Shown piece by piece: positions 5,622 to 61,671 of a stretch of 64,000 nt of DNA (positions are counted from its first letter, which is position 1; every line of letters begins with the position of its first letter). The notes under the pieces were generated by a model that saw only the letters and a list, made by a program, of their open reading frames with translations, made no database searches and was not told the DNA's origin. A program made the position numbers and the translations under genes. Source of the DNA: Candidatus Nomurabacteria bacterium (GTDB taxonomy: Bacteria; Patescibacteriota; Minisyncoccia; Phycocordibacterales; UBA918); the NCBI GenBank assembly GCA_020632095.1, contig JACKGF010000001.1, forward strand, positions 802,141 to 866,140, written 5' to 3'.

Positions 5622-6533
5622 ATGGAACTAGAGGAACTGAAACGTCAATTTTTAGAGTACCTCGAAATCGAGCGAGGGAGGAGTGTTAAGACAGTTGAAA
5701 ATTATGATCGTTACCTCGGACGGTTTTTTAACTTTGCGAAAGTCAAAAAACCGTCCGACTTTACTGAGGAACAAATTCGCGAGTTTCGTTTGTATCTCAA
5801 TCGCCAACCCGGCACCAAAGTTGGCGGCCGAGTGGAGTCAATGAAACGACGTACCCAAAATTATTATTTGATCGCCTTGCGCGCATTTCTTAAATTTTTG
5901 CGTAAGCGCGGAGTTGAGGCATTGTCACCTGAACGAATCGAGTTGGCTAAAGTACCGGAGCGTTCACTCGATTTGATTTCAGCTGCTGAGCTGAAAAGAC
6001 TGATGGCTGCTCCAGATAAAAAAACTCTCGAAGGTAAAAGGGATAGCGCAATTTTAGAATTACTTTTTTCTACTGGTCTGCGTATTTCTGAATTGTGTGG
6101 ATTATCAATTGATGATGTAGATTTAAGTCGAGACGAATTTTCTGTCCGTGGTAAGGGAGAAAAAGTTCGAGTGGTTTTTCTCTCTGACACCGCTAGGAGC
6201 GCGCTCGAGGATTATACTAAAAGTCGTAAAGATTTAGACGACGCTATGTTTGTACGGTTAGGAAGAAAAGTTAATGATGGTGGTGATTTACGTTTGTCTC
6301 CACGAGCGGTCCAAAGATTATTAAAACGTTATGCTGCTGAAGCTGGAATCACTCGCAAGGTAACACCACATGTCATTCGTCACAGCTTTGCCACCGACTT
6401 GCTTAGTAACGGCGCTGACCTACGTTCGGTTCAAGCTTTGCTCGGTCATGCCAATATAGGCACCACTCAAGTTTATACTCACGTGACAGATAAACATTTA
6501 AGAGATATTCATAAAAAATTTCATGGCAAATAA
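5622..6533 (+). CDS. tyrosine recombinase, XerC/XerD family
   Basis: It has an N-terminal SAM-like domain and a C-terminal catalytic HVIRHSFATDLL...LGHANIGTTQVYTHV with the R-H-R-Y residues. Confidence 0.85.
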   Translation: MELEELKRQFLEYLEIERGRSVKTVENYDRYLGRFFNFAKVKKPSDFTEEQIREFRLYLNRQPGTKVGGRVESMKRRTQNYYLIALRAFLKFLRKRGVEALSPERIELAKVPERSLDLISAAELKRLMAAPDKKTLEGKRDSAILELLFSTGLRISELCGLSIDDVDLSRDEFSVRGKGEKVRVVFLSDTARSALEDYTKSRKDLDDAMFVRLGRKVNDGGDLRLSPRAVQRLLKRYAAEAGITRKVTPHVIRHSFATDLLSNGADLRSVQALLGHANIGTTQVYTHVTDKHLRDIHKKFHGK

Positions 6534-16178: not shown

Positions 16179-16422
16179 ATTTTTACCAAAAAAATTTTGA
16201 GTTTAATTTTTTATTATTCAACAAACGCTAAGACAGCTTAGCTTAAAAGTGCTAGCTTCATTATTAAGTAGTGAAATAGGGCTGTAAATAAGATTAAACT
16301 GAAGTTCAGAGTAATCAAAAACTAACATAACTTACAAAAAATTAATTAGTAAAAAAATAAATTTTAGCTTTTTTATAAAAACACGAAACACAATTTAGTC
16401 AAATGAAATTGTAAAGGACAAG

Positions 16423-16441
16423 TTATCCACAGTTATACACA
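16423..16441 (+). promoter_or_regulatory. tandem DnaA-box-like motifs (TTATCCACA, TTATACACA) at the edge of a very AT-rich stretch
   Basis: A perfect DnaA-box consensus and a one-mismatch box lie adjacent to each other. An AT-rich tract of about 250 bp precedes them (16180-16420). Confidence 0.25.
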
Positions 16442-16845
16442 CCCCTGTCCTTTACACTGTCCTTTAGGATTAGTATATTAATGGTAGGCCCAGAAAGGGC
16501 GAGCAAGCTCTCCCAGAGAACTAACCAGAATCAATTTCCGATTAGTTCCCTGGAAGAGCTCCTTATAGAGTTCTTCCAAAATCCACAAATGAGTTACCTC
16601 CAAAATGATAGCAATATCATTAAACTCAAAACGTTCATAAAACATCCCACCCCCTTAGAAATCAGATCAAGCTCACATCCACAAGAGCGAGATCACAAAA
16701 TGATTTCTACAACAACGTAGAGCTCGGACACGGTTAGCTTCATCAGTAAGCGCCACCCATGACTATTTAGTCACTATAGCTCGCCAAAGGCCCGGAAAGT
16801 CGGCTGACAAGTATCACACTTGCCCATCGACTCCCCGGGCCTTTT

Positions 16846-16933
16846 TTTTGCATGAACAAAGGCCTGAAAGGCCTATTGTGAATGTATGTTGCTAGAAAAT
16901 AATGACTGAAAGGAGTATATTTTATGTATGCTG
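16846..16933 (+). repeat. direct repeat copy 1 (about 88 bp) with a 5' hairpin and an embedded SD-ATG
   Basis: tgaacaaaggcctgaaaggcctattgtgaatgtatgttgctagaaaataatgactgaaaggagtatattttatgtatgctgtgcacaag. Confidence 0.7.
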
Positions 16934-16966
16934 TGCACAAGATTTGTTTTGCCTTGAGCAAATTCT

Positions 16967-17055
16967 GACTCAAGGAACAAATGTCCGAAGGGCATATTGT
17001 GAAAATATGTTGCTAGAAAATAATGACTGAAAGGAGTATATTTTATGTATGCTTG
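16967..17055 (+). repeat. direct repeat copy 2 (121-bp period)
   Basis: It is identical over about 60 nt. Its hairpin has a different sequence (atgtcc-gaa-gggcat, against aggcct-gaa-aggcct in copy 1) but keeps the base-pairing. A 1-nt indel follows the ATG. Confidence 0.7.
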
Positions 17056-17336: not shown

Positions 17337-17346
17337 AACCTGTCCT

Positions 17347-18819
17347 TTATAATACCTTATGCTCTCTCGCGATGTCCTTTAGGGCTTCAGCTTCTTCTTC
17401 CGCTTGGCGACGTTTACCTGCCTCCGCCATTGTTTCTAGCTCTACTTCGGGCAATTTAAGTAATTCCAACGCCCTTTGCTCCATATACTCCTCAGTATTC
17501 TTGCTGGCATCATCCAAAGCTTCTTCCAACAGTGCGTGCAGTAGATATCCCAGCTTTTTACCAGGCTTTTCCCCAGAGATTTCCATAATTTTATCCCCAG
17601 AGATTTTAAGCATCTTAACTGAGATTGGGTCGCGTAAAGCTTCGTCCACCATCGCTTTGTATTTACGGAAGCGAAAAGGCTGTTCTTTTGGTCGACCGGT
17701 ACCGATACGGTCACAAACTCTCAGGTTTAATAAATTTTCTATCTGGTCCTCCCCTATTCTGGTAATGGTTCTCCGTACCGCTGAAAGTGTAATTTCGTCT
17801 GGGTCTGAGAAAAACATGTGCCATCGCACTAGGTTCACCACTTCTTCAATCATTTCGCGTGGCAGCTTCAGTCTCTCTAGAATAGATTTAGTCATCCGCG
17901 CGCCCACTACTTCATGACCAAAGAATGTGTACTTCTTATTCTTTCCACCAACTCTTCTGGTGGCTGGCTTTGCGATATCGTGAAATAAGGCGGCCAAACG
18001 TAGATTGAGAGAAAATTCTTTGTCGGCGGCTGCCTGCATGGTGCGTAGTAGGTGTTCATAGACATCAAATGCGTGGATTCCACCTTGTTCGCAACCAATT
18101 GAATCAGCAAATTCAGGGATAAATTGCTTCAGTAGACCTAACTTTTCTAGGAAGATAACCCCTTGCATTGGGGTAGAAGAATTAACGATCCTCAAAAACT
18201 CGGCCGCAATACGTTCAATAGAAATACGGCTCAATTGTTCACTGTTCTTTAAGATAGCAGCCATGGTCTTCCCTTCGATCATAAAGTCCAGTTCAGCCGC
18301 CAAGCGAACGGCCCGCATCATGCGTAAGGCATCTTCCGCAAAACGTTCGTCCGAGTCACCGACTGTTTGTAGTCGTTTTGCTCTGAGGTCGCTAATTCCC
18401 TCAAACAAATCAATTAATTCCGCTGTCGAGATACGATAGGCTAAGGCGTTGATGGTAAAATCACGACGCTTCAGGTCTTCTTCCAGTGAAACACCGAAAG
18501 TAACGTTGTCTGGGCGGCGAGCATCGCTGTATCCACTTTCGGAACGATAAGGAGTGACCTCAATTATCTTTAGTCGTTCATCTTCTGACTCAGTCTTGAT
18601 ACCAATAGTGCCAAAGTCATTGTTCGCATAATGCTCAGGAAAAAGCGCTTGAATATCACTCGGGTGTGCATTGGTGGTAATATCCCAATCCTTCGGAGTC
18701 TTACCTAAAATTAAGTCACGAGTACAACCGCCCACCAAATAGGCTTCAAAACCCTTACTTTCAAGCATATTTGCAACATGAAACACTTCGTCCGGAATAT
18801 CGGTAGTTTTGATAGACAT
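17347..18819 (-). CDS. cca: CCA-adding tRNA nucleotidyltransferase with an HD domain
   Basis: GGCTRDLILGKTPKDWDITT is the PolyA_pol head. It also has the HD motif (HDIAK) and a C-terminal extension. Confidence 0.85.
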   Translation of the reverse strand: MSIKTTDIPDEVFHVANMLESKGFEAYLVGGCTRDLILGKTPKDWDITTNAHPSDIQALFPEHYANNDFGTIGIKTESEDERLKIIEVTPYRSESGYSDARRPDNVTFGVSLEEDLKRRDFTINALAYRISTAELIDLFEGISDLRAKRLQTVGDSDERFAEDALRMMRAVRLAAELDFMIEGKTMAAILKNSEQLSRISIERIAAEFLRIVNSSTPMQGVIFLEKLGLLKQFIPEFADSIGCEQGGIHAFDVYEHLLRTMQAAADKEFSLNLRLAALFHDIAKPATRRVGGKNKKYTFFGHEVVGARMTKSILERLKLPREMIEEVVNLVRWHMFFSDPDEITLSAVRRTITRIGEDQIENLLNLRVCDRIGTGRPKEQPFRFRKYKAMVDEALRDPISVKMLKISGDKIMEISGEKPGKKLGYLLHALLEEALDDASKNTEEYMEQRALELLKLPEVELETMAEAGKRRQAEEEAEALKDIAREHKVL

Positions 18820-18915
18820 GACATTATTCTAGCAGAAATTACTGTTTGGGGTATGTTTATCTATAATTAGCGGTTGAATATTACCGAAAACAATAGTACA
18901 CTGCGACATACTAAT

Positions 18916-18988
18916 GCACCCGTGGCTTAATGGATATAGCACTTGTCTTCGGAACAAGGGGTTGGGGGTTCGAATCCCTCCGGGTGCA
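18916..18988 (+). tRNA. tRNA-Arg (anticodon TCG)
   Basis: The acceptor stem is GCACCCG/CGGGTGC. The anticodon stem is CTTGT/ACAAG with loop CTTCGGA. The T-loop is GTTCGAATC. A hairpin (18997-19020) follows. Confidence 0.85.
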
Positions 18989-19473
18989 CATCTTGACAAT
19001 ACACTATAAATAGTGTATTGTTTGTTATTCCCAATCCCCCACCACCAGCAGAAGCACCTTACATATCAAATAATAAGACAATTTCTCAGAGGAGAGAGTC
19101 TTGATTACTAACCTACAAAGGAAGGTTCAAGTTAAACAATCACTGACAACCCGCAAGGGTTTGAAACAGGCGACTGACTCTCAACTCCGAATTAGTCGCC
19201 CGTTTTCGTTGAAGGAAGCGCGGGAACGAATCAGTGTAATAGATATGTCGTTCTCCCACTTCTCTCAATGAGGAGAGAGTATAGAAGAATGTTTTTTGAA
19301 AATTGGATAACGACTACGTAAACCTTCTCCCAGTGAAGTTTCTAAAATATAATTTGGGGATTTCACTGGGAGAAGGCATAGTGCCGACTTCCCAGAATTC
19401 CAAGCGCCTGCCCGCCTGGTTCACCTAAAAACCGAACCGCGCAGGCAGAGCGCGGAAAAGAAAAGGAGAAAAA

Positions 19474-20886
19474 ATGGGAAGCATTAGATTCATAATCGAC
19501 GGTAGTAAACTCGAGGCGGACTCCGTCTATGGGTATCCGTATAGCCTGAGTATGATCCAAAGGGGTGTCGATTCTCACGATCAGGAGCTCGGTGTCATCG
19601 AGGAGAAACAGGTCCCGGACTACCTAATAAGTGTCTTCCGAGCCATGCAGGTCGCGATCCCGCCGGAGAACATATATACCGGCGCAATCAGCAATCAAGC
19701 TCCAAGCGCGATGGTCGATACTATGTTCGGTGTCGGACGTCGTAGCTCCGCGACCTTCACTTTCCTCCCGACCGAGCTCACGGCTCATGGTCACCGCGCT
19801 TGGGTCAAGCATAAGTACTGGACGGAAGGTGGGGGCGAGTGTTGGATTGGCTCCCTGATAGAGCACAATGCCTACGTCGCCGGTTTCTGGCTCGACGAGC
19901 GGGCCGCCCAGCAGTGGGTGGAGGACCTTACCAAGCACCCGCTCGGTGAGGTCCTGCTCAAGAGCACAACACCCTACGCCGTTGTGTTCCAGGATCACGT
20001 CAATCCGGCCGAGTGGAAAGGTGTGAGGATCAATTATTTCTCGTACTGCCTGCTTTCTGAGGATGACAACTACCTCCTGAACACGATCGGTGGAGGATGT
20101 CCAAAGGGCGTTTACCGTTCATTCGATGTTTCCTTCGAGCAGTGGAACGGAACGGTCTACGTTCACGCGCCCGAGCTCTGGCAGTTGGAGCGAGACAACA
20201 AACGCGACGTCTTCCCACTTAGCCCGTCCTACCTCATTCTTCGTGCCCGCAACGGTGCCCAGGAAGTGCTTCTCACAGGTACCGACCAAGACAAGAACGG
20301 CTGGACGAAATACGTCTATGAGCTTCCTAGGCGTAAGTCCTACAACCCTCTCGACGCCTCGGGCAATTGGGCCACCTTCTGGCCCAGTTACAATGCTTGG
20401 GAGGAATTCGCCTTCGCACAACACATCAAGGCGCGTCAGGTGAGTACCCTCCACAGCGACGACTGGGGCGACGAGGATGACCCCTTCTTCATTCCACTCA
20501 CACAAGAGTACGCGAAGAAGGCCTGGGCCGCGGGCGCTACGAAGCTCCCGGCCGAGAGCATCAAGCTCAAGGTCAGCCAGTTCAAGGCGGGATACGGAGA
20601 GGGAGATCGATTAATCAACGATGAGCAAAACCCTCTGAATGGTGCCGTTATCTACGACGGATTCGACTTTGTCTCGGGTTTAGTGGGCCGGATCGTGGAT
20701 TGGATCTGGCTCAAGAAGGAATCGGCCTGCGTGTTTCTGCCTATGGGTTTCGTAGGCTGGATTCAGTGTCAGAAGGGGCTGGCAATCTCCCATGCCACGG
20801 TGGTTCGTAAGCTCGGCGACAAGTCGCGCGATCCGACTGAAATAACAGTATTTTCGGATGGTAGTTGCATCTACCCCACCACCTAG
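19474..20886 (+). CDS. hypothetical protein (470 aa), compositionally foreign (about 58-60% GC)
   Basis: Long ORF with GC3-rich codons. I recognise no motif. Confidence 0.55.
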   Translation: MGSIRFIIDGSKLEADSVYGYPYSLSMIQRGVDSHDQELGVIEEKQVPDYLISVFRAMQVAIPPENIYTGAISNQAPSAMVDTMFGVGRRSSATFTFLPTELTAHGHRAWVKHKYWTEGGGECWIGSLIEHNAYVAGFWLDERAAQQWVEDLTKHPLGEVLLKSTTPYAVVFQDHVNPAEWKGVRINYFSYCLLSEDDNYLLNTIGGGCPKGVYRSFDVSFEQWNGTVYVHAPELWQLERDNKRDVFPLSPSYLILRARNGAQEVLLTGTDQDKNGWTKYVYELPRRKSYNPLDASGNWATFWPSYNAWEEFAFAQHIKARQVSTLHSDDWGDEDDPFFIPLTQEYAKKAWAAGATKLPAESIKLKVSQFKAGYGEGDRLINDEQNPLNGAVIYDGFDFVSGLVGRIVDWIWLKKESACVFLPMGFVGWIQCQKGLAISHATVVRKLGDKSRDPTEITVFSDGSCIYPTT

Positions 20887-21463
20887 TCGGATTTCAAACG
20901 CACCGTGTCGCGTACAGTTCTTTCACCGAGTTGAGGACACGGTCTCAGCTCGCTACATCGGAGCAAAGATTGACTAGCCGTCACTACTAGTGGAAAAGCC
21001 ACCTGGAGGACGGCTTTTTCTATATTTATACAAGACAAAAGTGTCGAACCAACTCCTGCTCAGCGCACAAAGGTAAAAGAAAAACACGATGCAAATTGCA
21101 TCATGCTTTTCTTTTAGAAAGTAACCTGCGTCACTCTGGGCCTTTGAGCAAGGCGAAGAACTGTTTTCTCCCGCTCCTAGGGAGAAAAAAGTCGAGCCGG
21201 ATGAGTCAGTCTGGGAGACTGATGCAAGACTTTGTCAGCTTTTTTTTGAGGAACGAAGAGAAATCGCGACAAGGTGAGCAGAATTCGTAGAATTCGAGAG
21301 TGCTAAGTAAAATTTGCATTTAGTGCGGAATCATATTAATACTGACCATTAATGCAATCAGTGCTAATGTGTTTAAATGTGGTTTATATGGTCGAGTACA
21401 TGTCAATGACAAAACAAATAAACCAATATATATTAATTACCTGTTCTTTAGGAGGAGTGCCCC

Positions 21464-22003
21464 ATGCAACTTGTCGAACTACCTATATCTGGAAGAGCTT
21501 CCCTTATTCAAGTTCAAGAGATTCTTGCTGAATTTGGTCAGCTGATTCCATGGCTAATGAAAATTGGTGGTCTGTGCTATTCGACCAATCGACGGTATTT
21601 CGAGGAGCAGTTACACCAGAGGATAGGGTGTAAACCGGGTTCCATTTCCCTGTATCAACTCGTAAGTTCTGGTCGTGAGAGAGACTACGTAGGAGGATTA
21701 TTACGCTTTGCAGACGTCCCTGAGAAGTTTTTAGATTCTCGTCTTCAAATGCTCATGGCACAACTCGTTACCCAAGGTGCCATGTACATATCTTGTCTTC
21801 AAGTGCACGGAGTAAAACGTGGCTTGGGATATGGCTATGGCGCAGAAATAGTTCTTAAGGCAATTAAGCGTATCCAGCAAGAGTGGCCGATTGTTTGGGG
21901 AGTTTGTGAACCTAGATTGCTCAAGTGGTATGTTTCATTGGGAGCAGAGGTTCTGGACCCAGGGATTAACCGTGACCATCTGGCCTTAATAGTATGGAGA
22001 TGA
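21464..22003 (+). CDS. hypothetical protein, possible GNAT-like acyltransferase
   Basis: VKRGLGYGYGAEIV resembles GNAT motif A. The call is weak. Confidence 0.35.
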   Translation: MQLVELPISGRASLIQVQEILAEFGQLIPWLMKIGGLCYSTNRRYFEEQLHQRIGCKPGSISLYQLVSSGRERDYVGGLLRFADVPEKFLDSRLQMLMAQLVTQGAMYISCLQVHGVKRGLGYGYGAEIVLKAIKRIQQEWPIVWGVCEPRLLKWYVSLGAEVLDPGINRDHLALIVWR

Positions 22004-22025
22004 GAACCCCGAGCATCTCGTTGCT

Positions 22026-22060
22026 CTAGCCCGCCAATTCTGTTGGCGGGCTAGCTTTTT
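22026..22060 (+). terminator. intrinsic terminator
   Basis: ctagcccgccaattctgttggcgggctagcttttt. Confidence 0.65.
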
Positions 22061-22080
22061 ACCCACAGGCATATTATTTT

Positions 22081-22380
22081 GTGGAAGTATTTGTTAAGCT
22101 ACGTTATATGGAACTATCAGAACGCTACATCCAAAAGCTTGAAAATGAAGGGTTTGCTTCGGTATATGAGGGGCAGGACGCGGCTGGTAAGGTCTATTCG
22201 GAACGGATTTCCAAAGGAAAGCTATCAATCTTGGTGACCGATGGTTCCCTCACTTTCACCATGTCTGGACGAGAGAAAGTTGTGGCGGCTGGTCAACGCT
22301 TCGATATACCGCCATCAACAACATACTCACAAGTCGCTGGTCCCCTGGGAGCGATTTATATTGTGGGTGAAATGGACTAA
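22081..22380 (+). CDS. small hypothetical protein (cupin-like?)
   Basis: 99-aa ORF. The start codon is uncertain. Confidence 0.3.
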   Translation: MEVFVKLRYMELSERYIQKLENEGFASVYEGQDAAGKVYSERISKGKLSILVTDGSLTFTMSGREKVVAAGQRFDIPPSTTYSQVAGPLGAIYIVGEMD

Positions 22381-23095: not shown

Positions 23096-23252
23096 ACCTA
23101 CATTCTACCAGTTGTTGCAAACAATCCGAATTCAATACAAAGAGAAAGAAAAGCACATAGGTCAAAAACTAACTTAGCCCACTCAATATTGTGCTGGTAT
23201 TGTTTACAACTCAAATCGAACTTATGTAATTAGTATATAATATACGAACAGT

Positions 23253-23912
23253 ATGGTACGGAATCAAGTGAATTATGAACAAGCTATCAATCTTCGGAAA
23301 CGTGGTTTTACTTTAGCTGAGATAGCTAAAGTGTGCGATATATCTAAGTCCACCGCTTCATTATGGTTGAAAAATAAGGCTTTTTCGGAGCTGGTAACTA
23401 AACAAAATATAAAACGCGCTGGCCAAGAAAACGCCAAAAGATTGAGTCTAATCAGCAAAGCGCGCGGTGGTGAACGCAAGCAAAGATACTTAGACGCACA
23501 AACATCAGCTAAGACAGAGTTTGCCCACTACAAGGCCAATCCTGCCTTTGTAGCGGGTGTAATGGCCTATGTGATGTCGGGAGACATGAGTGATGAGCAT
23601 ACTATCAGACTCAGTCATACTTCCCTGTCAGCCCACCGTATGTTTATCAGCTTTGCTACTAAGTTCCTGGGAGTAGAAAAAAACCGGATTCATTTATGGC
23701 TACACCTCTATGAAGGTGCATCAGAAGAAAGAATGATGAAAAAATGGTCTAAAATAACCACTATTCCCTTCTCTCAGTTCTATAAAAATCAATTTGTTAA
23801 TAAAACCAGCCGCAAACCATTGCACTCTGGCGTCGGAAATACTATAATCGGCAGCACCTATCATAAACAAAAGCTAAAAGCCTGGGTGCATTTAGCGGAA
23901 AAAGAATGGTAG
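23253..23912 (+). CDS. HTH-domain protein, unknown function
   Basis: It has an N-terminal helix-turn-helix (RGFTLAEIAKVCDISKSTASLWLK). Confidence 0.45.
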   Translation: MVRNQVNYEQAINLRKRGFTLAEIAKVCDISKSTASLWLKNKAFSELVTKQNIKRAGQENAKRLSLISKARGGERKQRYLDAQTSAKTEFAHYKANPAFVAGVMAYVMSGDMSDEHTIRLSHTSLSAHRMFISFATKFLGVEKNRIHLWLHLYEGASEERMMKKWSKITTIPFSQFYKNQFVNKTSRKPLHSGVGNTIIGSTYHKQKLKAWVHLAEKEW

Positions 23913-23925
23913 AATAGACATATAA

Positions 23926-23996
23926 GCGGCCATGGTTAAGTGGTATAACGGGTCCTTGCCAAGGATCAGTCGGGGTTTCGATTACCCCTGGCCGCA
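23926..23996 (+). tRNA. tRNA-Gly (anticodon GCC)
   Basis: The acceptor stem is GCGGCCA/TGGCCGC. The anticodon loop is TTGCCAA. The T-arm is GGGGT-TTCGATT-ACCCC. A hairpin at 24003-24022 follows. Confidence 0.85.
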
Positions 23997-24022: not shown

Positions 24023-24186
24023 TAGGCGTCTGTGGCCAGGGAGCAAGCAAACTGCTTTGCTTGCGGGTAATCGAAACCGCCGGAGTGATGTATTTTGCTC
24101 TTTTCCTAGAGCAAAATACGAGCGAGGTGTGACCCGTGGCACTTATGAGCAAAGCGAATTTGTGACCGTCAGGTTTCGATAATTTT
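24023..24186 (+). other. tRNA-linked structured element A (homologous to element B)
   Basis: It shares blocks with 25961-26129: gcaaactgctttgc inside a 9-bp covarying stem, aatcgaa.cgccggag.gatgt, cgagcgaggtgtgacccgtggcactt, gagcaaagcgaa and gtgaccgtcagg. It ends with ggtttcgat, which echoes the tRNA-Gly T-arm. Confidence 0.4.
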
Positions 24187-24412
24187 TAGGGTGATGTCCG
24201 TACATAATAGACCTAGTAAAGATGAGCGTGTGCGAATGTAAGTAGACAATTAGTTTCTATAGAGTGCATAACTGGGGATAAGGAGTGGATAGGTGGATAA
24301 AGGACAAAAAGGGTTATAAAAGGCACTTGTCCTTTATATATTCTTGGTATAATAAACAAAATCATGTTTCATTTCACATGAAACGGGAAATATTTGTAAA
24401 TACTAAGTTTCA

Positions 24413-24827
24413 TATGAAACAAACTGATAAACAAGGCAGAAAAAACGAAATTGGAGCCTACGGGGAAGAAATTGCTATAAATTACCTTAAAAAGCTAGGT
24501 TTTACTATTTTAGATACAAATTATCTTAAAAAATGGGGTGAAATTGACATTGTGGCACGTGAAACAGACAAAATTCACTTTATTGAGGTAAAAACAGTTT
24601 CATATGAAACAAAGATTGACTTAAAAAATGCTATTTCACGTGGCACCTGGCGCCCAGAAGAAAACGTACACGTTTCTAAGATACAAAGACTGAACCGAGC
24701 GATTGAAAGTTGGATTATGGAAAATAACTATAATGATGAGTGGGAAATCGACGTTATAGCGGTGCGAATGGTTCCACGTGAAAAATACGCTACCGTTAAA
24801 TACATAGAAAGTGTCGTTTTTGGTTGA
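24413..24827 (+). CDS. YraN-family (UPF0102) PD-(D/E)xK endonuclease-like protein
   Basis: GAYGEEIAINYLKKLGFTILDTNY...GEIDIVARETDKIHFIEVKTV matches YraN. The likely start is the ATG at 24413 inside a palindrome. The listed ORF (24285) begins earlier. Confidence 0.55.
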
Positions 24828-24845
24828 TTGTGATAAGATTTTTGT

Positions 24846-25076
24846 ATGAGTGATTTAAAACTTGGTAAGTACAAGCATTACAAAGGTAATTTCTATGAAG
24901 TTATTGGTTGTGCCAGACATAGTGAGACCTTAGAAGAGTTAGTGGTTTATAAAGCGCTGTACATATCAAATGATTTCGGGAAAGACGCATTGTGGGTCAG
25001 ACCAAAAGCTATGTTTATGGAAAGCATTGAATTGAAGGGCGTAATGGTTCCTAGATTTGAGTACATCCGTCAATAA
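24846..25076 (+). CDS. DUF1653-domain protein
   Basis: KYKHYKGNFYEVIG...VVYKALY is typical of DUF1653. Confidence 0.55.
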   Translation: MSDLKLGKYKHYKGNFYEVIGCARHSETLEELVVYKALYISNDFGKDALWVRPKAMFMESIELKGVMVPRFEYIRQ

Positions 25077-25091
25077 TTTCACATGAAACAT

Positions 25092-25121
25092 GCTAAAACG
25101 TTTCACGTGAAACGTTTTAGC
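25092..25121. promoter_or_regulatory. 30-bp perfect palindrome gctaaaacgtttcacgtgaaacgttttagc (operator and/or terminator)
   Basis: Its core TTTCACGTGAAA belongs to a palindrome family that recurs at about 24366-24384, 24407-24420, 24554-24565, 24597-24610, 24635-24647, 24774-24786 and 25077-25089. Confidence 0.4.
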
Positions 25122-25152
25122 AAATTTATGTATGTTAGTTTATAATATTTAG

Positions 25153-25537
25153 ATGAAATTTTATATTGCTGCACGAACGTCGCAAATTCCTAGAGTTAGG
25201 GAATATATCACAATGCTTGAAGAAAAAGGTCATGTTTGTACGCATGATTGGACTCAGCACGAGAAAGCAGAGTTGCAAAGACCCTACGAGGAACATTTAG
25301 AACTAGCTTCTGAGTTTGCAGTGAAGGACGTGGGGGGGGGTAGTTGAGGCTGAAGTTTTCATAATACTGGGTGATCAGTCTGGTTCAGGTATGTATGTTG
25401 AAATGGGAGCTGCTTTAGCTAGCAATACGAAAATATATGCAATTGGAGATTTTAATGATGCTACCGTTTTCCATTTCCATCCTTTGGTGACAAGAGTAAA
25501 CACGTTCGAAGAGGTGTTACTAGATTTGGGTACTTAA
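25153..25537 (+). pseudogene. nucleoside 2-deoxyribosyltransferase-like protein interrupted at a G9 homopolymer
   Basis: The N-terminal part reads MKFYIAARTS... and the C-terminal part reads EAEVFIILGDQSGSGMYVEMGAALASNTKIYAI. Together they match the NDT/DNPH1 family. They are in different frames on either side of G9 at 25332-25340. Removing one G fuses them into about 128 aa. Confidence 0.5.
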
Positions 25538-25683
25538 AACTCGCTTTTTTTCTGACTAGATGTTATATTTTGCAGACTTTGATCGTACTTTGGCGGTCAA
25601 GGAAGCGGGGTAGATAGCTGGGTGTATGCGAAGCATACAACCTCTCTTCACTCGGTCATAGTGTGCTGCAAGCAAAGCTTGCT

Positions 25684-25960: not shown

Positions 25961-26129
25961 GAGAGGGGAGAAGAGGCAAACTGCTTTGCCTCTGTCCGGA
26001 ATCGAACGCCGGAGCGATGTGAGCCTGCGAACGAGTGAGGTGTGTCACGCGGCACTTGCTAGTTTGTGAGCAAAGCGAAACAAACTAGCTTAGTGACCGT
26101 CAGGACGATTCCCGGCTCCCCGACAAAAT
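25961..26129 (+). other. tRNA-linked structured element B, ending in an exact 24-bp copy of the tRNA-Pro 3' end
   Basis: It shares blocks with element A. The stem agaggcaaa-ctgc-tttgcctct covaries with gcaagcaaa-ctgc-tttgcttgc in A. Positions 26106-26129 (cgattcccggctccccgacaaaat) equal 25900-25923. Confidence 0.45.
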
Positions 26130-49302: not shown

Positions 49303-50121
49303 TTAGGAGTTATACGTTTTAGCTAGTAGTTCTCGCAATCTAGCGTTCACGTCAAATTTTCTTGAGTTGTCTTTGATGAATTCAAACATCGATTTTATCA
49401 ATTTCTGGATTTCTGAATGGCGGATTTCAATAATGATTTCCTCGTTCATCGCGATTAAATAAACTGAGTTCTTAAACATCCAAATCTGCCCAGCGTGTTG
49501 AAAGTAGTCACCTGCAATTTCATGCGAAATAGCCGACCGACCTTCAAATTCTTCCGCCCACTTTTTACCCAGCAATTCAGTCTGCCTCTCAAACCAGCCA
49601 AAGGGCATAATGGTCTCCACAATAATCGCGTTCTTTTTGATGAATCTATTAATTTCATTCGTTTGCTCGGTACCAAAAACTTTTTCCCAACCAATCACGA
49701 CCACGTCTCCCTGAATCGCCAGTAACCGTTGTTCCTTATGGTCTTTGATGATTCCGTAAAGAAGCTGGCGGATGGCCTCACCACCGCGGTGAATCATAAC
49801 GGTTGAATCAGATAGTCCGTGCACCTCCTCAACTCTTTCATCTATATTGAATAGTTGTTTCTTCGTATTGTATAGATTTTGTTCAATATCTTTTTCCTTA
49901 GCCTGCGACCAATATTTTTTACCATTAACAATATTGGTTTTTACCAACCCTCTTTTGTGCAGCTTAACCAGAATCTCATAAATAGCGGGGCGGGATACTT
50001 TAATAGCCTTGTTAATCAACAGTGGGGTATTGTTTCCAGCCCGCAAAGCATCCAACACCTTAATCTCTTTGGTGGATAATCCCAGTAATTTTATCTGTTC
50101 AGCGTCTAATTTCATACCCAC
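49303..50121 (-). CDS. TrmB-family transcriptional regulator (paralog 3)
   Basis: Its HTH is INKAIKVSRPAIYEILVKLHKRGLV. Its C-terminal domain is closely similar to 39552..40523. Confidence 0.55.
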   Translation of the reverse strand: MGMKLDAEQIKLLGLSTKEIKVLDALRAGNNTPLLINKAIKVSRPAIYEILVKLHKRGLVKTNIVNGKKYWSQAKEKDIEQNLYNTKKQLFNIDERVEEVHGLSDSTVMIHRGGEAIRQLLYGIIKDHKEQRLLAIQGDVVVIGWEKVFGTEQTNEINRFIKKNAIIVETIMPFGWFERQTELLGKKWAEEFEGRSAISHEIAGDYFQHAGQIWMFKNSVYLIAMNEEIIIEIRHSEIQKLIKSMFEFIKDNSRKFDVNARLRELLAKTYNS

Positions 50122-50196: not shown

Positions 50197-51204
50197 TTCC
50201 CCCAGACACCTTTGAAGTAGGACAGCTATAAAGTAAATTAGCTGTCTATGAAAACATACAGACACATACAATTTGAGGAGCGTTTCGTAATTGAAAAGTT
50301 ATTGAACGCAGGGAGTTTGATCAGAGAAATAGCCATCTTCCTCAAACGTAGTCCCAACACCATCAGTCAGGAACTAAAGAAGAATAGGGTTAATGGAGTC
50401 TATGACGCCAAGCAAGCCCAACTAAAAGTGAACCAGCGTCGTTGGCGCGCTAAACGTCAGTGTCTCAAGGTGGCAATGGATAGTTTCCTAGTAAGCTTCG
50501 TAGAAGACAAACTAGAGCAGAAGTGGACCCCTAAACAAATCAGTGGACATCTCAAACGAGAGCTCGGTGTTACCTGTTCCGCCAAAGCTATATACAAGTT
50601 CATAGAAAGTCGTGGTCTGGAATATCGACTATTCTGGCGTTGGAACAAAAAGAAAAGTGGTCCGAAACGGACCACACATAAACCAGCTGATGATGGCCGT
50701 AAATATATAGATATTCGTCCTCTTGGTAGCCATGAGCTAGGTCACTATGAACTAGACTTCATTGTCTCTAAGTACAGTCCATACGTACTTCTAGTGGCTA
50801 CTGACCGTTTAACTAAATACAGCTTGGTACGTCAGTTACCCAATAGAAAACGCCACACAATCAGTGCAGCGTTCTCTAAAATGTTTAGCAATATTATAGT
50901 CAAGAGTATCACCACCGACAACGACATTGCATTCCGTCACTGGACGGAACTAGAACAAATCATACAGGCTCCAATCTATTTCTGCCACCCTTATCATTCT
51001 TGGGAGAAGGGACTGGTAGAGAATACTAATCGTTGGATTAGATGCTTTGTTCCAAAGCGGAGAGACATTGCGTCTGTTACTCAAGAAGAATTGAATGAGA
51101 TTCATACCTTCTTGAATGACCGACCGAAAGAGTGTATTGATTTTAGGATTTCGAGTGAGTATTATTATGAGCAATCTGTCCTACTTGAGGGGTAGCTGGA
51201 GGTT
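50197..51204 (+). mobile_element. IS30-family insertion sequence, copy 1 (about 1.0 kb)
   Basis: It is identical to 60664..61671 apart from 2-3 substitutions. It has imperfect terminal inverted repeats (..aagtaggacag..) and encodes a DDE transposase. Confidence 0.8.
50248..51195 (+). CDS. IS30-family DDE transposase
   Basis: 315 aa with an N-terminal HTH and a C-terminal integrase-core region (HPYHSWEKGLVEN). Confidence 0.85.
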   Translation: MKTYRHIQFEERFVIEKLLNAGSLIREIAIFLKRSPNTISQELKKNRVNGVYDAKQAQLKVNQRRWRAKRQCLKVAMDSFLVSFVEDKLEQKWTPKQISGHLKRELGVTCSAKAIYKFIESRGLEYRLFWRWNKKKSGPKRTTHKPADDGRKYIDIRPLGSHELGHYELDFIVSKYSPYVLLVATDRLTKYSLVRQLPNRKRHTISAAFSKMFSNIIVKSITTDNDIAFRHWTELEQIIQAPIYFCHPYHSWEKGLVENTNRWIRCFVPKRRDIASVTQEELNEIHTFLNDRPKECIDFRISSEYYYEQSVLLEG

Positions 51205-60663: not shown

Positions 60664-61671
60664 TCCCCCCAGACACCTTTGAAGTAGGACAGCTATAAAG
60701 TAAATTAGCTGTCTATGAAAACATACAGACACATACAATTTGAGGAGCGTTTCGTAATTGAAAAGTTATTGAACGCAGGGAGTTTGATCAGAGAAATAGC
60801 CATCTTCCTCAAACGTAGTCCCAACACCATCAGTCAGGAACTAAAGAAGAATAGGGTTAATGGAGTCTATGACGCCAAGCAAGCCCAACTAAAAGTAAGT
60901 CAACGTCGTTGGCGGGCTAAACGTCAGTGTCTCAAGGTGGCAATGGATAGTTTCCTAGTGAGCTTCGTAGAAGACAAACTAGAGCAGAAGTGGACCCCTA
61001 AACAAATCAGTGGACATCTCAAACGAGAGCTCGGTGTTACCTGTTCCGCCAAAGCTATATACAAGTTCATAGAAAGTCGTGGTCTGGAATATCGACTATT
61101 CTGGCGTTGGAACAAAAAGAAAAGTGGTCCGAAACGGACCACACATAAACCAGCTGATGATGGCCGTAAATATATAGATATTCGTCCTCTTGGTAGCCAT
61201 GAGCTAGGTCACTATGAACTAGACTTCATTGTCTCTAAGTACAGTCCATACGTACTTCTAGTGGCTACTGACCGTTTAACTAAATACAGCTTGGTACGTC
61301 AGTTACCCAATAGAAAACGCCACACAATCAGTGCAGCGTTCTCTAAAATGTTTAGCAATATTATAGTCAAGAGTATCACCACCGACAACGACATTGCATT
61401 CCGTCACTGGACGGAACTAGAACAAATCATACAGGCTCCAATCTATTTCTGCCACCCTTATCATTCTTGGGAGAAGGGACTGGTAGAGAATACTAATCGT
61501 TGGATTAGATGCTTTGTTCCAAAGCGGAGAGACATTGCGTCTGTTACTCAAGAAGAATTGAATGAGATTCATGCCTTCTTGAATGACCGACCGAAAGAGT
61601 GTATTGATTTTAGGATTTCGAGTGAGTATTATTATGAGCAATCTGTCCTACTTGAGGGGTAGCTGGAGGTT
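60664..61671 (+). mobile_element. IS30-family insertion sequence, copy 2
   Basis: It is identical to copy 1 except for a few substitutions. Confidence 0.8.
60715..61662 (+). CDS. IS30-family DDE transposase (copy 2)
   Basis: It differs from the copy-1 protein at 2 residues (N/S and T/A). Confidence 0.85.
   Translation: MKTYRHIQFEERFVIEKLLNAGSLIREIAIFLKRSPNTISQELKKNRVNGVYDAKQAQLKVSQRRWRAKRQCLKVAMDSFLVSFVEDKLEQKWTPKQISGHLKRELGVTCSAKAIYKFIESRGLEYRLFWRWNKKKSGPKRTTHKPADDGRKYIDIRPLGSHELGHYELDFIVSKYSPYVLLVATDRLTKYSLVRQLPNRKRHTISAAFSKMFSNIIVKSITTDNDIAFRHWTELEQIIQAPIYFCHPYHSWEKGLVENTNRWIRCFVPKRRDIASVTQEELNEIHAFLNDRPKECIDFRISSEYYYEQSVLLEG

Follow-up and report, generated by a model that had tools for sequence, protein, structure and literature searches.

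Palindromes in and around yraN as a predicted compact parS array beside a probable replication origin in Paceibacteria

Plasmid centromere arrays gather many ParB-family binding sites into less than 1 kb, where they act as one centromere. On chromosomes, the consensus parS, TGTTTCAC-GTGAAACA, is the palindrome at which ParB (Spo0J) nucleates, and it is almost always found near the replication origin, oriC (bioRxiv 10.1101/724823; PMC10786196). Most species have one to four parS sites (PMC10786196). A related palindrome, the Noc-binding site (NBS), has the half-site tATTTCCC, with A at position 1 and C at position 6 (bioRxiv 10.1101/724823). Here we describe a locus on contig JACKGF010000001.1 of a Candidatus Nomurabacteria bacterium (assembly GCA_020632095.1), within a stretch of 64,000 nucleotides (positions 802,141 to 866,140) that is referred to throughout as the window. 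At this locus, eight palindromes packed in and around yraN, a gene for a predicted nuclease, are likely to be chromosomal parS sites, and the compact array that they make up lies next to what is probably an origin of replication.

The Paceibacteria are uncultured bacteria with genomes of roughly 1 Mb, and their origins are usually guessed from skew alone. The window is chromosomal, with genes for PNPase, ClpB, the CCA-adding enzyme, RNase Y, ClpP, trigger factor, NusA and pyruvate kinase. At 99.88% identity it matches the ENA metagenome contig k141_195684, and its right end is common to the metagenome-assembled genome (MAG) GCA_020428725.1. Relatives of YraN all come from the Patescibacteria (Paceibacteria/'Nomurabacteria'-like) group; in an exact-record look-up, YraN with the 24414 start and the left-end proteins were not on record.

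Enrichment, identity and conservation of the palindromes

A sequence-only reading of the window had pointed to a dense cluster of palindromes, and counts against shuffled controls bear this out. Five exact copies of TTTCAYRTGAAA occur in the 64 kb, at 24372, 24408, 24598, 25077 and 25101, spanning 741 bp, where dinucleotide-preserving shuffles give an expectation of 0.07 and none of 100 shuffles attains five. When one mismatch is allowed there are seven matches, six of them in the array region, the search adding a copy at 24772 in the array and an unrelated match at 49518. The 14-mer GTTTCAYRTGAAAC, searched with up to two mismatches, yields seven sites, all in 24371-25113, against about 1.07 expected across the whole window, and the 16-mer TGTTTCACGTGAAACA with up to three mismatches recovers six array sites against 0.51 expected. 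An eighth site, at 24633, has three mismatches to GTTTCAYRTGAAAC and a position that is parS-like in relatives, which brings the total to eight parS-type sites in 0.76 kb (S1 to S8; Table 1). The intervals between them are irregular, at 36, 145, 45, 36, 138, 305 and 24 bp. The 30-bp perfect palindrome noticed earlier at 25092-25121 is confirmed, and its symmetry continues for one more base on either side, giving 32 bp (25091-25122). The earlier site coordinates are mostly correct, save that 'tttcacgtggcac' lies at 24634-24646 rather than 24635-24647 and 'ccacgtgaaaa' at 24774-24784 rather than 24774-24786. The copy at 24407-24420 had been taken to span the likely yraN start codon, and ATG 24414 indeed aligns with the YraN start in relatives. 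As to whether copies lie in promoters, S1 and S2 do fall in the promoter and start region, but the other six of the eight are intragenic (four, all in yraN) or downstream of genes (two).

The 14 bp of S8, GTTTCACGTGAAAC, match the core of the consensus chromosomal parS perfectly, and the array sites carry the 14-16-bp inverted repeat tGTTtCAc-GTGaAACa by which parS is recognised. No further site with up to two mismatches occurs in the 64 kb, and the sites are thus confined, as parS sites would be, to what is probably the origin region. Conservation was assessed in 62 loci from related Paceibacteria MAGs, found by a YraN protein search of genome contigs and encoding YraN proteins of 47-76% identity; these are the relatives referred to in this text. 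The motif GTTNCAYRTGNAAC was scanned with up to one mismatch, and the near zone was defined as -700 to +1300 of the yraN start. That zone holds 481 sites (3.9 per kb) and the remaining 884 kb hold 39 (0.044 per kb), an 89-fold difference, with a median of eight sites per genome near yraN. In nearly all of the loci the copies are limited to yraN and its immediate flanks, and intergenic sites both upstream and downstream of the gene are conserved. A logo of the 481 sites reads G1 T2 T3 N4 C5 A6 Y7 / R8 T9 G10 N11 A12 A13 C14, with T favoured at -1 and A at +15, and departs from the parS consensus only in having Y/R at the dyad. Of these sites, 97% have A at position 6 and 93% have G at position 1.

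Each intragenic site encodes a V-[SAP]-[RYH]-[EG]-T/K peptide, so that YraN of this lineage contains a four-fold repeat. The sequence-only reading had reported seeing no repeated peptide, yet one exists; it had also named a repeated peptide and its codon bias as what could explain the intragenic copies away, and this explanation fails on the codons themselves. In an alignment of 63 yraN sequences, the codons of the best-conserved site are GTT (100%), TCA (94%), TAT (98%) and GAA (100%), and those of another site are CGT (100%) and CCA (96%), whereas the Thr codons that flank the site codons vary freely and use all four synonyms. Excess codon homozygosity is 0.55 for motif codons versus 0.07 in 68 other conserved codon columns (Mann-Whitney p = 8e-9). 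Because synonymous positions are frozen in the four intragenic sites and variable in neighbouring codons, selection is on the DNA and not on the peptide, and the peptide follows the DNA. A yraN homologue that lies outside the locus (L066) is without the peptides, without the sites and without DnaA boxes. The palindromes are therefore conserved as DNA regardless of coding context, as is characteristic of parS.

Some of the sites are part of larger palindromes. Of 115 perfectly palindromic parS cores in relatives, six are prolonged by further palindromic arms of 5-12 bp (positions counted from the yraN start: L014 +522, L021 -645, L049 +1376, L050 +681, L063 +141 and L064 +159). Several of these are followed by T-runs. 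The extended palindromes score as terminator-like hairpins, the 30-bp palindrome in the window as a weak bidirectional one. Some parS sites thus appear to sit at the tip of terminator-like hairpins, and the extended palindromes may serve a second function.

A probable origin of replication beside the array

Three DnaA-box-like 9-mers stand in tandem on the minus strand, about 70 bp upstream of the first array site. These boxes lie 0-2 mismatches from the one-mismatch criterion used and form a cluster of the kind that marks oriC. Among the 62 loci, the 250-bp stretch just 5' of yraN holds on average 1.71 9-mers like TTATCCACA (at most one mismatch), versus a background of about 0.08 per 250 bp, an enrichment of about 20-fold. 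The order of elements is conserved as a block: DnaA boxes, the inverted repeat TAAAGGACA...TGTCCTTTA, TATAAT, a parS site, and a parS site over the yraN ATG. AT content rises to 0.72-0.80 at 24320-24400, a stretch that also holds the yraN promoter, S1 and S2; neither a DnaA-trio pattern nor a clear AT-rich unwinding element was recognised beside the boxes.

The cumulative G-C curve of the window has its minimum at about 20 kb, between this DnaA-box cluster and a second one described below. Raw guanine-cytosine (GC) skew shifts from about 0 to about +0.2 at 24 kb, largely owing to gene orientation, and the genes diverge from the locus. As a clean origin switch the raw skew was rejected on account of this confounding; after correction, the step is smaller and asymmetric. 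Across 62 genomes the strand-corrected skew, as the plus/minus-gene mean, is about 0.00 from -7 to -1 kb versus about +0.07 from +4 to +9 kb, and the fitted side effect of the coding-strand-corrected skew is 0.034 (95% confidence interval 0.028-0.041). This step has the sign of an origin. Since the skew of the left arm is about 0 and not negative, the assignment of oriC to the array and its DnaA boxes is probable and not certain. Given that DnaA boxes are about 70 bp away and that the strand-corrected skew steps here, the array probably adjoins oriC.

The second DnaA-box cluster, at 16423-16441, is on the plus strand and so in the opposite orientation, about 7.9 kb from the first. Counterparts lie 3-6 kb upstream of yraN in about 18 of the 62 relatives at the stringency used. 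The two clusters bracket cca, a strain-specific insertion, a helix-turn-helix (HTH) gene and the transfer RNA (tRNA) gene tRNA-Gly, and they may together represent a bipartite origin without dnaA linkage, 16412..16466 being the other half. A second motif family is specific to this region: TGTCCTTTA has seven exact copies in the 64 kb versus 0.67 expected, and its copies (16412-16466, 17341-17381 and 24298-24336) form inverted or direct repeats around both DnaA-box clusters and the 3' end of cca. In relatives, TGTCYTTTA is found 1.76 times per locus in the 500 bp upstream of yraN, in 58 of 62, with a second peak at -3 to -6.5 kb.

Table 1. Coordinates (window numbering) of the parS-type sites and of the features around them
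Feature	Coordinates	Strand	Remarks
S1, parS-type site ATTTCACATGAAAC	24371..24384		One mismatch to GTTTCAYRTGAAAC; 3' of the TATAAT box; holds the alternative ATG 24378
S2, parS-type site GTTTCATATGAAAC	24407..24420		Central ATG 24414-24416 is the yraN start codon
S3, parS-type site GTGGCACGTGAAAC	24552..24565		In yraN, residues 47-51 VARET; TGTTGCACGTGAAACA in many relatives
S4, parS-type site GTTTCATATGAAAC	24597..24610		In yraN, residues 62-66 VSYET; DNA nearly invariant among relatives
S5, parS-type site ATTTCACGTGGCAC	24633..24646		Three mismatches; in yraN, residues 74-78; parS-like position kept in relatives
S6, parS-type site GTTCCACGTGAAAA	24771..24784		In yraN, residues 120-124 VPREK
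S7, parS-type site ATTTCACATGAAAC	25076..25089		Shares the last base of the DUF1653 stop codon (25074-25076); rest just downstream
S8, GTTTCACGTGAAAC	25100-25113		Perfect 14-bp parS core; centre of the 30-bp palindrome 25092..25121
DnaA-box-like 9-mers	TTATCCCCA 24273-24281; CTATCCACT 24283-24291; TTATCCACC 24292-24300	minus	Probable oriC DnaA-box cluster
Inverted repeat TAAAGGACA-N21-TGTCCTTTA	24298..24336		Adjoins the DnaA boxes; overlaps the -35 region of the yraN promoter
TATAAT	24348..24353	plus	Likely yraN -10 box, as read from the sequence; position kept in relatives
yraN (UPF0102/YraN family predicted nuclease)	24414..24827	plus	137 codons; hosts four sites
DUF1653 gene	24846..25076	plus	76 aa; between yraN and the two downstream sites
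HTH_23 + LAGLIDADG-like protein gene	23253..23912	plus	Conserved, syntenic
Second DnaA-box cluster	16412..16466	plus	TTATCCACA at 16423, TTATACACA at 16433; TGTCCTTTA repeats on both sides

Around yraN itself, the gene caller picks the alternative ATG within S1, and a site equivalent to S2 overlaps the yraN start codon in most relatives. The DUF1653 gene is present in only two of the 62 relatives; elsewhere the downstream sites come directly after yraN. An NDT-like gene (25153-25538) lies downstream of the 30-bp palindrome and is frameshifted in the window at a run of eight G (about 25332-25339). Two other metagenome contigs have the open reading frame (ORF) uninterrupted, at 127 aa; the three sequences differ by one gap each, and the frameshift is either a homopolymer assembly error or phase variation.

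Several further observations concern the region between and beyond the two DnaA-box clusters. From about 18900 to 22100 the GC content is 0.47-0.49 versus about 0.41 elsewhere; the ORFs there (19474-20886, 470 aa; 21464-22003, 179 aa) have no Pfam or NCBIfam match and no homologue in the 62 loci, and this is probably the strain-specific insertion, placed next to tRNA-Arg in the origin region. In a 1.2-kb intergenic region (16470-16851 and 16854-17053), the sequence TGTCCTTTA...TATATT resembles a promoter, a strong hairpin with a trailing T8 (16786-16851) resembles a terminator, and there is a 79-nt direct repeat (16854-16932 and 16975-17053, 91% identical), with no Rfam match. The region may hold an unannotated small RNA or a repeat element. 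Similar 'gcaaactgctttgc' hairpin-like stretches, again without an Rfam match, follow tRNA-Gly and tRNA-Pro (24040-24062 and 25975-25995), and a 14-nt perfect inverted repeat (23974-23987 and 24065-24078) would let the T-arm region of tRNA-Gly pair with a stretch 77 nt further downstream. Further away, an IS30-like transposase gene (315 aa, HTH_38 and rve domains) is present in two copies, at 50248-51195 and 60715-61662. The assembly of a related sample breaks near these copies; its contig L004 matches 51064-51204 plus the right end of the window.

Predicted ParB loading and rival binders

Because the sites match the parS consensus and adjoin a conserved DnaA-box cluster, they are predicted to be a centromere-like ParB loading array and not a family of transcriptional operators. 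The sequence-only reading is therefore upheld in part: the sites are selected as DNA and suit a dimeric HTH protein, with ParB as the predicted binder, but its proposal of an operator family is contradicted by the parS consensus and the DnaA-box cluster. Nor are the palindromes a known RNA element. Rfam searches of the window gave only four tRNAs at gathering thresholds, and relaxed thresholds at both intergenic regions gave noise.

A course of events can be borrowed from characterised ParABS systems (bioRxiv 10.1101/724823; PMC10786196). A ParB dimer would set one HTH on each half-site (GTTNCAY/RTGNAAC), and binding of cytidine triphosphate (CTP) would then close the dimer into a clamp that slides onto the flanking DNA. 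With eight loading sites in 0.76 kb, ParB would be loaded at a high rate right beside the origin, and repeated loading could build a partition complex on the newly replicated origin. Such a complex could in turn support ParA-driven segregation, the loading or recruitment of SMC, or both. Since S1 and S2 sit between the -10 box and the first yraN codons, with ATG 24414 at the centre of S2, occupancy by ParB would probably also dampen yraN expression. ParB binding and every step after it are, in this scheme, what analogy with those systems would predict.

Several results weigh against this assignment, in addition to the flat left-arm skew. Pfam detected no ParB, ParA or DnaA in 50 ORFs of the window, namely its 49 main non-overlapping ones of at least 129 aa and the 76-aa DUF1653 ORF. 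Searches with phmmer using B. subtilis Spo0J, Soj and DnaA, queries that had been validated as true family members, found none among ORFs of at least 70 aa in the window and, within 10 kb of the array, in the 62 loci. The right-end extension provided by L004 encodes RecJ, PGK, TIM and type IV pilus genes, with no ParB. In keeping with this, dnaA is not adjacent to the array, and the cognate ParB, expected to combine ParB_N and HTH_ParB domains, is putative. The dyad is also unusual, being CG in 48%, TA in 26% and CA/TG in 27% of the relatives' sites, and no paper in the literature searched describes a parS centred on CATATG or CACATG as being bound by ParB. Finally, a conserved HTH gene lies close by in the window, 0.5 kb upstream of the array and 1.2 kb upstream of the yraN start.

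With these points in mind, one may ask whether the array is used without a canonical ParB, or with a ParB that has shifted to a degenerate YR dyad, as part of a fused origin-centromere module. Its parts would be the DnaA-box trio, the TGTCCTTTA inverted repeats and the syntenic WhiA-like HTH/LAGLIDADG protein. We regard this as doubtful. If true, a lineage-specific protein would organise the origin with yraN held inside the centromere, and the whole would be a minimal origin/segregation cassette, not linked to dnaA and peculiar to ultra-small bacteria.

The neighbouring HTH and LAGLIDADG-like protein was the binder favoured by the sequence-only reading. As a dimer on the palindromes, it would control yraN or the origin. 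In 56 of the 62 relatives its gene is syntenic with the array, which it precedes by about 1.4 kb in the same orientation, and the best 120 of 461 homologues show 58-75% identity. The AlphaFold model (mean predicted local distance difference test score 89.8) consists of a confident N-terminal three-helix HTH, a 50-residue helix and an alpha-beta-beta-alpha-beta-beta-alpha domain, a predicted fold that resembles WhiA, a DNA-binding protein tied to cell division and chromosome biology. The lack of a ParB gene in the window or within 10 kb of the relatives' arrays also speaks for it. The model shows, however, no similarity to ParB, KorB or Noc; Foldseek against the PDB returned no significant match, a PDB sequence-profile search nothing below E = 0.08, and NCBIfam only weak HTH matches. 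The promoter of the HTH gene (23096-23252) is without a site, unlike in an operator set, whose sites lie in promoters and typically in the regulator's own as well. Two relatives (L007 and L058) have eight to nine sites and no HTH gene within 10 kb, although the gene could lie elsewhere in them. Above all, the palindromes reproduce the pan-bacterial parS consensus position for position, and convergence by an unrelated protein is unlikely. The TGTCCTTTA motif ranks no lower as a candidate target of this protein and, as speculation, is the more natural one. Taken together, the proposal that the HTH protein is the binder is poorly supported and is judged unlikely.

Judged more unlikely again is another factor acting on the origin or on yraN, such as a Noc-type diverged ParB paralogue or some other replication or segregation regulator, for which the array would modulate initiation or local transcription instead of being the segregation centromere. 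In its favour, the array begins close to the DnaA boxes, the promoter and start codon of yraN fall within it, the centres of half of the sites are of the non-canonical YR type, and parS-type palindromes in predicted origins have been read differently before: in origins of Bradyrhizobiaceae, Ori-Finder once took TGTTTCACG for a species-specific DnaA box. Here, canonical DnaA boxes are present separately from the array, position 6 is the A of parS where the Noc consensus needs C, and no data call for a factor other than ParB.

Finally, a coding by-product of the repeated YraN peptide, chance in AT-rich DNA, or the recombination or nicking site once offered as an alternative is highly improbable, despite the peptide itself and a tyrosine recombinase gene 18 kb off (5622-6533), given the excess over shuffles, the four of eight sites outside yraN, the synonymous freezing only inside motifs, the L066 homologue, and an array at a skew minimum that differs from single dif-type sites. 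Recombination sites of the dif type are 28 bp long and occur singly, at the terminus. Readings as restriction sites (CACGTG/CATATG), miniature inverted-repeat transposable elements or tandem repeats were likewise rejected, because the dyad varies, the in-frame positions are fixed and the spacing is irregular.

Comparison with described systems

Read as a parS array, the locus gives the origin and centromere of Paceibacteria chromosomes a concrete landmark that can be tested. The conserved grouping of parS array and yraN with DnaA boxes and TGTCCTTTA repeats could mark the origin for genome finishing and for replication-rate estimates of the iRep type. With four parS sites in a 137-codon gene, yraN is also a clean example of a coding sequence shaped by an overlapping DNA-binding code. 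The literature search found no paper linking parS or ParB with Patescibacteria, the candidate phyla radiation (CPR) or yraN, and no earlier description of a predicted parS array beside such a DnaA-box cluster in the CPR; judging from the sites, parS recognition probably extends into this group with a relaxed dyad.

The closest known counterparts of the array are the chromosomal parS sites of B. subtilis (Spo0J/parS) and Caulobacter (ParB/parS). They share the same 14-16-bp palindrome, including the specificity-determining G1 and A6, the presence of several copies in one small region that adjoins a DnaA-box cluster and probably a skew switch, and the tolerance of copies within coding sequence. 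Multi-site species spread parS over kilobases to tens of kilobases, whereas here eight sites lie in 0.76 kb. The locus differs further in that a single small gene, with its peptide adapted to them, contains half of the sites, that about half of all sites have TA, CA or TG at the dyad instead of CG, and that parAB and dnaA are not nearby, the cognate ParB being putative.

In density the array resembles plasmid centromere arrays (F sopC, P1/N15-type, type Ib parS/parC), which likewise have many ParB-family sites in less than 1 kb. Those arrays are regular tandem direct repeats of plasmid-specific sequences, whereas here the sequence is the chromosomal consensus, the spacing is irregular with no sopC-like tandem unit, and the replicon is a chromosome carrying core genes. 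The NBS palindrome (TATTTCCC-GGGAAATA) is also 14-16 bp long, is the target of a ParB-family CTPase and has the same outer TTT/AAA arms. The sites described here have G1 and A6 in place of the A1 and C6 of the NBS, and they are clustered at one locus, whereas those of the NBS type are dispersed around the chromosome outside the terminus region.

Turning to the origin, bipartite oriC of the B. subtilis and H. pylori type offers a parallel in its two opposite DnaA-box clusters around a few genes at the cumulative-skew minimum. Here the bracketed genes are cca, the HTH/LAGLIDADG-like gene and tRNA-Gly, together with a 4-kb insertion in this strain, and not dnaA. The predicted parS array itself is a known kind of element and does not amount to a new kind of system. 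What sets it apart is its density, the placement of half of its sites in one gene, its relaxed dyad, and its position beside a DnaA-box cluster without dnaA linkage.

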